Under the pieces are notes generated by a model. It saw only the letters and a list, made by a program, of their open reading frames with translations. It had not been told where the DNA came from and did not search any database. 64,000 nucleotides of DNA from an uncultured archaeon. GTDB taxonomy: Archaea > Asgardarchaeota > Lokiarchaeia > Sigyniarchaeales > SOKP01. Below are positions 7,840 to 29,478 of the stretch, in pieces. The stretch lies in NCBI GenBank assembly GCA_964486045.1, contig CAZALK010000001.1:256001-320000 (forward strand), read 5' to 3'. Numbering within the stretch: position 1 is the first letter of the stretch; the number at the start of each line of letters is the position of its first letter. The position numbers and the translations under genes were made by a program.

Positions 7840-9360
7840 ATGACGGATACAGATAAAAATCTAGAAAAATTTAGGAAAATTCTAAATGTATACAATGAAA
7901 TTAATTTAGATAAAATGGCTAAATTAATCGGTTTTAGAAACTCTATAAATTTAGAACAATGGATTCTGGATTTGCCAGAAAAATATCACACCTATTTAAC
8001 TATAAAAGGAAAAAATGTTATTATACAATCTAACATCTCAGAAATGATTGATGACCTATTAAATGAATTCGACAAATGGGATAGTAGAAAAAATGAAAAA
8101 ATCATAGAAAGAATCGATTTAAGAAAGAGCTTTTTTAGAACGAAAACAGAAACCGAATCCGTTGTTTTAGGTGATTCAAAATTAGGATCAGCAGGTAAAA
8201 AGCTTCTTAGTTTATTGCCTACACATAAAAGTATAACAAAGAATCGATTTATTAAAGTCTTTGAACTTGAAGCACTAGTAGACATTGATGAATGGCTATT
8301 AAGTCTTCCAAAAGAACTAGGTGTTTTTCTTAATGTTAAAGATAACGTCATAATGTTTGAAAAGAAAGCTTCAAGTAAGGTAAAATTAAGAATAGCAGAA
8401 CATTTTGATGATTGGATTTCAAACTTAATGAATAAACTGACAAAAGTAGATGAATCCGCTGTTAATAAAGAAATAAAAAGAATTCCAAGTATTTTAGGAG
8501 CTGGGTATCATAATTTTTTTAAAATAGATATCAAAAAGGAAAATAGAAAATCTCTAATTCTTCATATAATTGGTCATAACCAATTTACTTCAAAATCTAA
8601 ATACGGAGATAGGACTTACACTACTTTTAGAGTAAATGAAGAAGTTAAACGGAGTGTTACAGATTTCCAACCAGATATAATAGAAAAAGCAAAAAAATCT
8701 ACTGTAAAGAGGGAGATCTCTCATAGAAATGGAACCCGACACTACTATGTAAGCCCCGGAGGTAGAAACATTAGTCGTTTAATAAAAACTTCAGAAAAAG
8801 ATTTTGAAACTAGCTTAAAAAACCTCTTGATTGAAGTTATTCCTGTAAAAAATATCTCATATTCAATTATTGCCCCATCAAAAAAACAAAATATCTTAAA
8901 CGTGTCTTCACCTCGAAAAATTTGTGTTAAGTGTGGTAAAATATTTACTCCTGTAATGTGAGATGGGTGGGAGATTAAATATTTATCACTAGAAAATGTT
9001 TATATCTGTGAGGAATGTAATCCTAAACTTAAAAAAATTGTCCAGGGAGAAAATATTGAAAGATCTAATAAGGAGTTAAACATTAAAGAAACACGATCAA
9101 AAAAATCAAAGTTCAGAATCTTTTCTATATTAAATATAATACTACTTCTGGCTGTTGGATTGTCTTTACTATCCCTTTTATTCCCTATTATTATTTTTAG
9201 CATATTAGAAGTTTATTTAGTAATAAAATGGAAGTTAAAATCTAACCAACTTAAAAATTTGAAATGGGAAGAATCTGTTAGAAGAAGAGCGGTTCTGAAT
9301 AGTGTTAAACAATACGAAGGTGAATTATTAAAAAAGAAATTTATACCTGAAATCTGCTAA
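7840..9360 (+). pseudogene. Protein with an N-terminal PCI-like domain, Zn ribbon and TM, split by an in-frame TGA at 8959
   Basis: ORFs 7840..8961 and 9160..9360 share a frame with no other stop between them; the stop splits CVKC...*...CEEC; N-terminus carries a WH-like segment ending IDDLLNEFDKWD. Confidence 0.65.
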
Positions 9361-9393
9361 AATCCCAAGAAAAGCAAAAAAAATATATATTGA

Positions 9394-9456
9394 GACCAGC
9401 AAACAAACATCAAGGAAGTAGATAAGATATTACAAGAATTGAATAAAGAGAAATAG
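9394..9456 (+). pseudogene. Degenerate PCI-tail fragment
   Basis: DQQTNIKEVDKILQELNKEK*, in the same frame as the upstream split gene. Confidence 0.6.
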
Positions 9457-9529
9457 AACCTAGAGAAAAAAAGAAATAGATTGTTACAAAGAATGAGTAT
9501 AATAAAAATTACAATTAAAGGTTATAATA

Positions 9530-27094: not shown

Positions 27095-27142
27095 AAATGT
27101 TTAGCATTTAATAAAGCTACTATAATATCTAAAAGAAGAAGA

Positions 27143-28627
27143 ATGGTTAAAAAAAAAACCAATTTAGACGATTTATTGAAAGAAATTAAGGATAATAGCC
27201 TCAATCTTAAAGCTGAAGAAATTGAATCTTCTGATATTTTATCAGAAGAAAATATACAATTAGAAGGAACTAAAGGAAGAATAAAAAAGTTAGAGAAAAA
27301 GGGAAAATTTTTAAAAAAAATTCAAGATATTATTGGTTGGTTGTTTCTACTTTCTATACCTGGGGGCGCTATTCCTTTTTTAATTTTACTTTTTCTTCCC
27401 GGATCTATTGGTCATAATGTGGGCTATTTATTTATGGAACAATTCTGGAATTCTCCCACTGCTGAAATATTTTGGATAAGTTTGATTATATGGGGTATAA
27501 TTGTGGTCTCATCTTTTATTTTATCTTTTATTGTTATTGTATTTGTTTATGACGAATATTCAATAGACAGGGAAAGAAGAAAATTAAATTCAGAATTAAT
27601 TAAAATAGAAAGTTCAATAGAAAGGATAAAAAGGGAATTAAAATCAGAAATAACCAAAAAAAGAGTATTAGACTTAATAGAAGAAGGAGGTATAAAGTTT
27701 AATGAGAGGGATTTTTCTAACGCGTTAAAAGTATTCGAAAGAGCACAGGAAATTTTGAGAACTTCTCCCGCCCCCCAAGAAATTCAAAATATTCTTGAGT
27801 CTAAAATAAGACTCGTTCAAGAAAATTTAAATGAGCTAAAGATAAGGGAGATTGATCCAATAATAGAACAAGGAAATCTTCTTAAAAATCAAAAATTAAA
27901 AGATAAAGCTATAGAGGTTTTCAAAAATGCACTTGAAATTACGAATAATTTATTTAAATTTCCCGAAAGGGATCAAAAAATAAAAGAAATCAAAAGTTTA
28001 ATTGATGCGATCTATTTAAATAAAATAAAAGAAATTAACGCAAAGGGAAATCAATTAAGGAATCAAAATAAATTTGATAGAGCCATTCAAACTTTTAGGA
28101 ATGCATTACAAATTACAGACAACATTTATTCATCTTCTAAGAGAAAAAAAGAAATTCAAAATATTGAAAATTTAATTAATCAGGCTTATTCTGATAAGAT
28201 AAATGAGAAAATCAAAACAGGAAATCAATTAAGAAAACAAATGAAATTCGACGAATCGATAAAAACTTTTAATAAAGGACTAAATCTCACTAAAAAAATG
28301 TATGATTCCAGGGAGAAAAATAATGAAATTAGTGAGATAAAAAGTTTAATTAATCAATCTAAAATAGCAAAAATTAAAAATACCATTTTAAACCTAGGAA
28401 CTAAGTTCGGAAGATTACATATAATGGAAATATCGGAAGAATGTGGAGAAGTTGAGAGCTTAATCATATCTACAGTAAGAGAAATGATTGAAGGTAGCGA
28501 GATCTATGCAAAATATTTTGAAAGCAGTAAATGGGTTGCTTTTGATCAACAGGCAAATATCAAAGAAATAGATAAATTAATGGAACAATATCAACAATGG
28601 GAAAAGGAAGGGATAAGTAAAAAATAA
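27143..28627 (+). CDS. Two TM helices, TPR-like repeats and PCI-tail module
   Basis: Two TM segments; about 4 helical repeats (GNQLR..KFD.AI..F..AL); PCI tail. Confidence 0.85.
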   Translation: MVKKKTNLDDLLKEIKDNSLNLKAEEIESSDILSEENIQLEGTKGRIKKLEKKGKFLKKIQDIIGWLFLLSIPGGAIPFLILLFLPGSIGHNVGYLFMEQFWNSPTAEIFWISLIIWGIIVVSSFILSFIVIVFVYDEYSIDRERRKLNSELIKIESSIERIKRELKSEITKKRVLDLIEEGGIKFNERDFSNALKVFERAQEILRTSPAPQEIQNILESKIRLVQENLNELKIREIDPIIEQGNLLKNQKLKDKAIEVFKNALEITNNLFKFPERDQKIKEIKSLIDAIYLNKIKEINAKGNQLRNQNKFDRAIQTFRNALQITDNIYSSSKRKKEIQNIENLINQAYSDKINEKIKTGNQLRKQMKFDESIKTFNKGLNLTKKMYDSREKNNEISEIKSLINQSKIAKIKNTILNLGTKFGRLHIMEISEECGEVESLIISTVREMIEGSEIYAKYFESSKWVAFDQQANIKEIDKLMEQYQQWEKEGISKK

Positions 28628-28695
28628 TTATTAAAAAAAATTAATACTTTTAATTTAAGGGAAGAGAAGAAATTCACCTAATAAAATAAATTATA

Positions 28696-29478
28696 ATGTC
28701 AAAAACAAATTTTGAAAAGAGATTTCTAGCGATTAAGAATCTAGTTCAAGAAGAATTATTTTCAAACGCGAAAAATGAGTTGAACAACATTAAAGAGGAG
28801 GCTAAACTCCATAATTTGGATGAAACTCTTAAGCGGGCAAATGAAATATTAAATTTATGCGAAAAATTAGAAAAAAATATGGAACTCAAAAAAAAAATTT
28901 CCGTGATTAAAAATCTAACTCAAGAACAACTATTTTCAGAGGCTTAAAAAGAGTTAAACGACATTAAACAGGAGGCTAAACTCCATAACTTGGATGAAAT
29001 TCTTAAGCGTGTAAATGAAATATTAAATTTATGCGAAAAATTAGAAAAAAAGAAGGAGCTCAAAAAAACAATTCCCAGGATTAAAAATCTAATTCAAGAG
29101 AGGAAATTTCCCGATGCTAGTGTCGAGTTAAAAAATGTTAGAAATATTGCCAAACGATATAATTTAGACGAAATTATTAGTTGGGCTCAAAAGAATTTAG
29201 ATATATGCAATAAACATATAATTAAAAAGACAATATTAGAATTAGGAACTAAATTTACGCGTCTACAAATCGTAGAAATTTCGGAAGAATGCGATGTAAA
29301 GGATGAGAAATTAATTGTAGATATTGTAAGAGAGATGATTGATAACAAAGAAATATATGCCCAATATTTCTCTAGTACAAAATCAGTTGCGTTTAATCAA
29401 CAGGCCAATATTGATGAAATTGACAAATTAATGGCGACTTATAAAGAATGGGAAGAAAAGAAAGTTGAAAAGAAATAA
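28696..29478 (+). pseudogene. Three 58-aa helical repeats plus PCI tail, interrupted by an in-frame TAA at 28945
   Basis: The two tracked ORFs share a frame; 174-nt repeat; the stop aligns with an AAA codon in repeat 1. Confidence 0.8.

Follow-up and report, generated by a model that had tools for sequence, protein, structure and literature searches.

The DNA analysed here is a stretch of 64,000 nucleotides (the window) from the 5.18-Mb genome of an uncultured archaeon of the Lokiarchaeia (Asgardarchaeota; contig CAZALK010000001.1). It contains an operon for a ubiquitin-like conjugation system, with a modifier, an E1 (activating) and an E2 (conjugating) enzyme, and several genes whose products (the carriers) differ in their N-terminal part and end in the same module, a winged helix followed by a short tail. 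The original prediction regarded this module as the docking unit of a repertoire of substrate receptors or E3 (ligase) proteins for the modifier, akin to the UFL1-DDRGK1 ligase of the eukaryotic UFM1 system. Genes are designated below by their lower window coordinate.

Gene content of the operon

Comparison of ca. 100 loci anchored on the E2 gene revealed a recurrent core of seven genes encoding an ESCRT-II-like protein, an SPFH protein, a conserved uncharacterised protein, a UBA5-like E1, a JAMM protease, the modifier and a UFC1-like E2, with carriers interspersed (Table 1). The homologous loci are labelled Promethearchaeota and Heimdallarchaeota and include those of Lokiarchaeum ossiferum and Heimdallarchaeum aukensis; one genome (G113) has two separate operon copies with different carrier sets (L155/L034 and L038). 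Carriers occur between core genes in several operons, and in close relatives the gaps are filled by different ones.

In PDB searches, the best match of the E1 is UBA5 (E 1e-46, vs 3e-31 for MoeB) and that of the E2 is UFC1 (E 1e-4), with Cys137 invariant in 58 E2 sequences. The Val-Gly end of the modifier is also invariant; its Pfam Ufm1 match is weak (4/18, best E 0.044), no UFM1 chain was retrieved with it from the PDB, and its identity as a UFM1 protein is weakly supported by sequence. In several relatives (L037:9713-10525, L040, L041, L046, L047, L049, L088 and L101) modifier and E2 form a single reading frame with the modifier at the N-terminal end, and the JAMM protease would need to cut such a fusion after Val-Gly. 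The JAMM gene of the window probably starts with ATA after a GGTGA motif (25030-25045), where homologs have ATA, ATT, ATC or ATG. The bases 5' of it are similar to the final part of E1 genes that directly adjoin a JAMM gene, so 22607 and 24233 seem to have been inserted between the two. For 19594, a CDC48-N-like front end was read by eye and is unconfirmed; Pfam and PDB searches gave nothing beyond its zinc ribbon, and ESM Atlas look-ups for this protein and for the module returned no usable match. A UFL1 identity of 15805 was ruled out by its match to Vps22/SNF8.

As originally stated, no RING or HECT domain was found in the locus. F-box and cullin proteins are likewise missing among the locus proteins (cullins were not searched for genome-wide), and no UFSP cysteine protease occurs at the locus, the only part of the genome examined for it, where JAMM is found instead. 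Assignment to a known defence system was unsupported because PADLOC gave only generic E1 and JAB matches.

Carriers and their shared module

Six genes (13968, 20803, 22607, 24233, 27143 and 28696) end in a module of 92 amino acids with 50-71% pairwise identity, as the open reading frame (ORF) listing and alignment confirmed. A hidden Markov model (HMM) of the six, run against the whole genome, otherwise recovered 18202 (E 9e-7), a fragment on contig C9 and, within the window, two remnants of the tail, but no further full copy; all full-length copies are located inside or beside one operon. Of the divergent versions that had been announced, 18202 thus stood, while those of 9530 and 7840 proved genuine but belong to other winged-helix subtypes that have mainly the tail in common with the six. 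The TPR, LRR, transmembrane and GTPase-like labels given to the N-termini were upheld by Pfam or hydropathy, but the SWIM label of 18202 is based solely on a CxC..CxH motif and the START-like label of 9530 was not confirmed; this protein contains two tandem repeats (47% identical) for which no Pfam match was found. Gene 28696 has an internal TAA (28945-47); an assembly that is 99.95% identical (L135) has AAA instead and a single ORF of 260 amino acids, and 7840 is interrupted by a TGA (8959-61) in place of a Trp of its homologs and is shorter than its relatives of 545 amino acids.

Table 1. Core genes, module copies and module remnants in the window
Feature	Position	Strand	Remarks
Orphan DNA remnant of module 3' end	7679..7786	+	Stops inside
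Third winged-helix subtype with tail-like helix	7840..8100	+	N-terminus of broken gene 7840
Second winged-helix subtype with full tail	10934..11188	+	C-terminus of LRR protein 9530-11188
Orphan DNA remnant of module 3' end	13699..13821	+	Tail only
Module copy	13968..14246	-	On TPR / zinc-ribbon protein 13968-15344
Core gene, ESCRT-II-like	15805..17199	+	N-terminal winged helix, helical bundle, C-terminal Vps22/SNF8-like tandem winged helix (E 9e-11)
Core gene, SPFH / Band 7 protein	17253..18116	+	
Divergent module	19258..19548	+	On SWIM-motif protein 18202-19548; PCI 24.5 bits, tail weak
Core gene, conserved uncharacterised protein	19594..20676	+	C-terminal zinc ribbon
Module copy	21412..21690	+	On GTPase-like protein 20803-21690 (Arf match E 1e-4; P-loop degenerate)
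Core gene, UBA5-like E1	21726..22553	+	GTG start probable; ends in conserved amphipathic helix
Module copy	23864..24142	+	On LRR protein 22607-24142
Module copy	24704..24982	+	On multi-transmembrane protein 24233-24982; above Pfam PCI cut-off, 24.4 bits
Core gene, JAMM protease	25042..26250	+	HxH..S..D motif intact; ATA start probable; C-terminal domain poorly conserved
Core gene, ubiquitin-like modifier	26289..26555	+	Ends Val-Gly; E2 fusion in several relatives
Core gene, UFC1-like E2	26552..27094	+	Cys137 invariant; residues of UFC1 helix-binding pocket conserved
Module copy	28349..28627	+	On protein with two transmembrane helices and TPR, 27143-28627
Module copy	29200..29478	+	On helical-repeat protein 28696-29478 (28696/28990); tail = 29407-29478

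A database search in which 8000 candidates were scored gave 209 relatives of the module, fused to LRR, TPR, WD40, small-GTPase, roadblock, beta-helix, SBBP propeller or membrane domains. The module is C-terminal in 199 of 204 pooled copies, the N-termini of 196 carriers fall into 73 groups, and close module relatives have different N-termini, which bears out the idea of a constant module with swappable partners. In a module tree based on 92 columns and of poor resolution, the window copies do not form a clade, the LRR copy grouping with membrane-protein copies of other genomes (95/81 support); this indicates shuffling. Genomes have from 0 to 11 carriers, with non-orthologous N-termini. Each carrier has one, rarely two, winged helices, with no tandem array, and helical repeats or TPR precede the winged helix in 13968, 27143 and 28696 and are missing in 24233 and many transmembrane carriers. 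Membrane helices occur in 84 of 134 carriers (63%) vs a background of 19%, many of these proteins having extracellular sensor domains.

The winged helix is of the PCI type

The Pfam PCI family (PF01399) matches 67 of 79 module members at E<=0.1 (best 1.5e-8), with the window copies of 24233, 18202 and 13968 above its cut-off, while PF09743 (UFL1) matches two (best E 7e-4) and PF09756 is outside the top 25. A deep-profile search of the PDB retrieved eIF3c, CSN3, Rpn5, Rpn3 and CSN2, and no UFL1 or DDRGK1 chain up to E=10. When started from just the six window sequences the search gave no matches, and phage spike protein H, the top match of the deep-profile search, was taken as a chance helical match. 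The model of the module comprises a winged helix and then a long helix (pLDDT 77.5, lower for the tail), for which the top 17 Foldseek matches are all CSN chains. In VIA-align, CSN3 (Z 10.1, root-mean-square deviation 1.4, 63 aligned, 22% identity) and UFL1-DDRGK1 (Z 9.7, 2% identity) amount to a tie, the scores for DDRGK1/UFBP1 and the UFL1 scaffold (Z 9.7 and 9.3) being level with that of PCI. Judged by sequence, the winged helix is therefore of the PCI type and closest to CSN3 and eIF3c, not to UFL1 or DDRGK1, and the kinship proposed originally is not supported.

A separate UFL1/DDRGK-like gene does occur elsewhere in the genome. Searches with PF09743 and PF09756 match solely contig C10, where a gene distinct from the module (L212; G000 contig C10, 50788-53208) encodes a protein of 790 amino acids that has Cys/His clusters in its N-terminal part and contains winged helices in tandem. 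This family is found in 121 of 138 genomes irrespective of the operon, and the profile match mostly begins at position 20-30.

The tail accompanies the operon across genomes

The tail corresponds to the C-terminal motif [IV]-x-[ED]-x-I-[DN]-x-L-x3-[YF]-x2-W-E-x5-K. The Lys at Trp+7 is present in 88% of 134 non-redundant tails, vs 11-31% at the five preceding positions and a background of ca. 15%. The tail is joined to several winged-helix types, sometimes to none detectable, and in one case (L205) comes straight after a membrane helix. Tail-less winged helices related to the module are common in operon-negative genomes, and the second subtype occurs in 111 of the 138 genomes, mostly tail-less, with several such genes elsewhere in the genome studied here.

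An HMM restricted to the tail was applied to 138 genomes of the Lokiarchaeia, seven with cut, decayed or dead operons being excluded. At E<=0.01 it was positive in 19 of 21 genomes with the E2 vs 15 of 110 operon-less ones (88 vs 23 matches) and, at 1e-4, in 16 of 21 vs 7 of 110. Twelve of the 14 operon genomes outside the training set were tail-positive and the contrast recurs inside three genera. In Heimdallarchaeaceae, E2 and tail are found in the identical 7 of 27 genomes; in the complete Heimdallarchaeum genomes and in Lokiarchaeum ossiferum, for which five tail matches were obtained, tail genes are scattered far from the operon and are confined to operon-bearing genomes. A strict count of the six-gene module (tailed copies in 14 of 24 genomes with an E2 match vs 13 of 114 without) understated this link because other winged-helix types also bear the tail. 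The operon-linked unit is thus the tail and not the winged helix. The original prediction had treated the two as one unit, of which the PCI-like part was matched but the operon link belongs to the tail alone. Nor is the module equally abundant in genomes without E1, E2 and modifier, the tail being strongly enriched with the operon.

Apparent exceptions that possess part of the operon are G028, where a contig end cuts it, and G104, where it is decayed. In genus g18, a modifier-like domain was considered as an explanation for the g18 tails and rejected, since it lies inside a membrane protein and there is no E2 in the neighbourhood. This protein (L181:9300-11138, plus strand) has 612 amino acids, a C-terminal hydrophobic segment and an internal domain ca. 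40% identical to the operon modifier.

Possible docking of the tail on the E2

Human UBA5 binds a pocket of UFC1 via a short helix with L394, L397, M398, M401 and M404 (PMC8481289), and human UFL1 inserts W5, I8, L11 and F15 of a short helix into the same pocket (PMC10702826). Module residues I74, L77, M78, Y81 and W84 have the spacing of the former and I71, I74, L77 and Y81 that of the latter, these tail positions being 73-99% conserved. The C-terminal helix of the Asgard E1 itself resembles the tail (hhalign 71%). In the E2, the equivalents of pocket residues L32, L39, V43, F54 and L56 are hydrophobic and that of K47 is K or R in 47 of 58 sequences. Co-folding of E2 and module gave a score of 0.05, which, obtained without controls, is no verdict and carries no weight either way.

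Exchange of domains at the position of the tail is stronger evidence for an E2 partner than hydrophobic spacing. Among Heimdall relatives, the same winged helices are followed in some proteins by the tail and in others by a zinc ribbon and a RING finger, and in Loki membrane receptors a TIR domain follows the same winged helix. RING is an E2-recruiting domain and, since it shares the slot of the tail, the tail plausibly recruits an E2 too. The E3-like role put forward originally gains from these RING fingers. The module is not obligatory, many complete operons lacking a nearby carrier.

Among the proteins involved in this exchange, those of Heimdallarchaeaceae (L235, L218, L240, L263, L252 and L241) end in winged helix, zinc ribbon and RING-H2, several being membrane-anchored, and their sequences make them candidates for an Asgard membrane E3 ligase family. 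The Lokiarchaeial TIR proteins (L024:10098-13388, minus strand; L029, L144, L145 and L146) cross the membrane once, with beta-helix or solute-binding domains outside the cell and the winged helix plus TIR in the cytoplasm; they have a Toll-like layout and occur mostly in operon-negative genomes.

We give about even chances to a scheme in which the tail docks on the E2 and the carriers are RING-less scaffold E3s or self-tagging receptors. The UBA5-like E1 would activate the modifier and hand it to the UFC1-like E2, which, by analogy with human UBA5, it would grip through its own C-terminal helix; the carrier tail would then occupy the same pocket on the charged E2. The variable N-terminus (of LRR, TPR, WD40 or GTPase-like type, or placed outside the cell across a membrane helix) would set the place and time of E2 recruitment, with the PCI-type winged helix as a spacer or clustering unit. 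The modifier might be placed on a bound partner or on carriers brought together in clusters, perhaps on the conserved Lys at Trp+7, after which the ESCRT-II-like and SPFH proteins would handle the tagged membrane proteins and JAMM would reverse the tag.

A number of observations weigh against E2 docking. The i, i+3, i+4, i+7 hydrophobic pattern is general in amphipathic helices and of low specificity, and neither the tail nor the E1 helix, used as a profile against the PDB, retrieved UBA5 or UFL1, both giving chance matches only. In human UFC1 the pocket is ca. 35-40 A from the active Cys (PMC8481289), which makes modification of the tail Lys in cis unlikely; the fixed Lys would equally suit a substrate tag, and sensors that face outwards cannot bring in substrates from the cytosol. 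Complete operons often lack a carrier close by (20 of 43 long E2 loci have none), and no tail is detectable in G067 and in five E2-positive genomes of other Asgard families. Strong tails are present in seven genomes without a detected operon, including the 100%-complete G066 (G022, G040, G063 and G064 also have tails without a detected operon), and in G104 six tails persist although, of the core genes, just those for the ESCRT-II-like and SPFH proteins are intact. Finally, co-occurrence cannot separate the E2 from the six other core genes, and the contrasts and p-values overstate significance because the genomes are related and the tail HMM was partly trained on the same loci.

Alternative explanations

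The main alternative is one that we consider unlikely but worth retaining: the carriers may be clients, the tail being a substrate or cargo tag that is read by the ESCRT-II-like 15805, the SPFH protein or 19594 (as the real E3 or as a sorter), with the Lys at Trp+7 modified and the carrier sorted or removed from the membrane. Such a tag would fit the fixed Lys, the excess of membrane helices among the carriers, the conservation of the Vps22-like 15805 alongside SPFH in the operon, and G104, in which tails are kept with only these two genes intact. However, G104 may be in mid-decay because its 19594 is a relic, G144 has an intact 15805 and no tail, and both the RING finger in the same slot and the match to the E1's own last helix would be left unexplained. 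Whether by docking on the E2 or by being read as a tag, the tail probably links the diverse sensors with conjugation and sorting as carried out by the operon.

The sequence and fold matches described above (CSN2/3, eIF3c, Rpn3/5) raise the question of a proto-signalosome, in which PCI winged helices would form a ring and the tails a helical bundle with JAMM, as in the lid and CSN, to give a de-conjugating complex with variable subunits. TPR, PCI and C-terminal helix do reproduce the architecture of lid and CSN subunits, and the operon encodes an MPN+ protease. With 0 to 11 carriers per genome, however, the set of PCI subunits is not fixed, the helical-repeat part is missing from most carriers and some tails come without a winged helix. 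Moreover, the C-terminal region of JAMM is poorly conserved, whereas the tail is conserved from Loki to Heimdall, and we regard such a complex as improbable. Equally improbable is hitchhiking, i.e. a generic receptor oligomerisation tail spread by recombination in a mobile island without functional link to the operon, since the orphan remnants, broken genes and strain-specific stops of the locus, the patchy operon distribution and the winged-helix and TIR receptors of operon-negative genomes, which it would explain, are set against a tracking unit that is the tail and not the winged helix and against the tail genes that lie far from the operon in Heimdallarchaeum and Lokiarchaeum ossiferum and still only in operon-bearing genomes.

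As to purpose, a role in immunity or stress sensing is hinted at by the patchy occurrence, the decaying genes, the TIR outputs and a fusion of SIR2, TPR, E2 and modifier, but PADLOC gave no specific match. The fusion (L183:7831-10524, minus strand, in G069) encodes 897 amino acids, with SIR2-like and TPR parts followed by a UFC1-like E2 whose catalytic Cys is replaced by Ser and a modifier-like part, and suggests a defence-type effector or decoy.

Relation to known systems

With the UFMylation cascade the Asgard operon shares a UBA5-type E1 and a UFC1-type E2 with catalytic Cys, the latter retaining the pocket residues (PMC10702826, PMC8481289). Like the UFL1 N-terminal helix and the UFC1-binding sequence of UBA5, the tail is a short amphipathic helix with matching hydrophobic spacing, on a winged-helix scaffold without RING or HECT. 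It differs in being C-terminal, in occurring on up to 11 proteins per genome rather than on one ligase, in its conserved Trp-Glu and fixed Lys, and in having no significant sequence match. DDRGK1/UFBP1 (PF09756) and the UFL1 scaffold (PF09743) have in common with 24233, 27143 and many relatives a membrane anchor, a helical linker and a winged helix, but the carriers have a single winged helix and no PDB sequence match to them, and the match of these profiles in the genome is another gene. PCI subunits of lid, CSN and eIF3 (PF01399) similarly combine a PCI winged helix with a C-terminal helix, TPR-like repeats in some carriers and a nearby MPN+ protease, whereas the carriers form no fixed subunit set, mostly lack the helical-repeat part, often have membrane or extracellular domains and bear a tail that tracks a conjugation operon.

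The F-box logic invoked originally applies as far as a constant docking unit is combined with variable LRR, WD40 and TPR recognition domains, as in cullin-RING receptors. The analogy is loose because membrane proteins make up 63% of the carriers and many of them have sensor domains outside the cell; in addition, the Asgard locus has no cullin, Skp1 or RING, and its constant unit sits at the C-terminus and probably contacts the E2 without an intermediary.

Ufm1 homologues have been reported in nine Asgard clades (PMC12962969), in a text in which term searches found no mention of UFC1, PCI, UFL1 or DDRGK, while UFC1 has been stated to be eukaryote-only (PMC10183829). Patchily distributed Asgard multidomain ESCRT-associated proteins with HTH/PCI and TPR domains have also been noted (PMC10936438), in sections that do not describe the tail. 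No description of the tail was found in the literature on Asgard PCI, UFM1/UFMylation, archaeal UFC1 operons or Asgard TIR receptors, and no paper was found that names an E3 or substrate for Asgard UFM1-type genes. What is new here is the separation of the tail from the winged helix, the genome-level operon test and the proposed docking site.

Other features of the window

A hydrophobic gene, membrane peptidase-like by eye, adjoins a gene for a HerA-like ATPase at 4890-7700; both families have ca. 8-9 paralogs each in the genome, several as adjacent pairs. Inspection of translations by eye at 31795-33219 and 34313-40838 indicated a TPR protein, a pair of genes of the small GTPase-like kind and a low-complexity protein of 1709 amino acids with repeated Cys motifs.

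Biological significance

If docking on the E2 holds, the carriers would extend the scaffold-type principle of UFM1 E3s without being members of UFL1/DDRGK1. We tentatively suggest, as a possibility that may well prove incorrect, an expandable family of Asgard receptor-type E3s, built on a sensor-plus-winged-helix chassis with exchangeable outputs (RING serving ubiquitin, a helix docking on UFC1 serving the UFM1-type modifier, and TIR serving signalling). In eukaryotes, the helix by which UFL1 binds the E2 would then be a descendant or a parallel of the tail and would have been joined later to an Asgard UFL1-like scaffold whose profile match lacks the helix. A motif of 20 residues, present on dozens of proteins and tracking the operon in two Asgard classes, would name the E3s or the substrates of this pathway. 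It would also reveal an archaeal route to RING-less E3 ligases, and surface receptors would have been tied to ubiquitin-like tagging and ESCRT-II-like proteins before eukaryotes.

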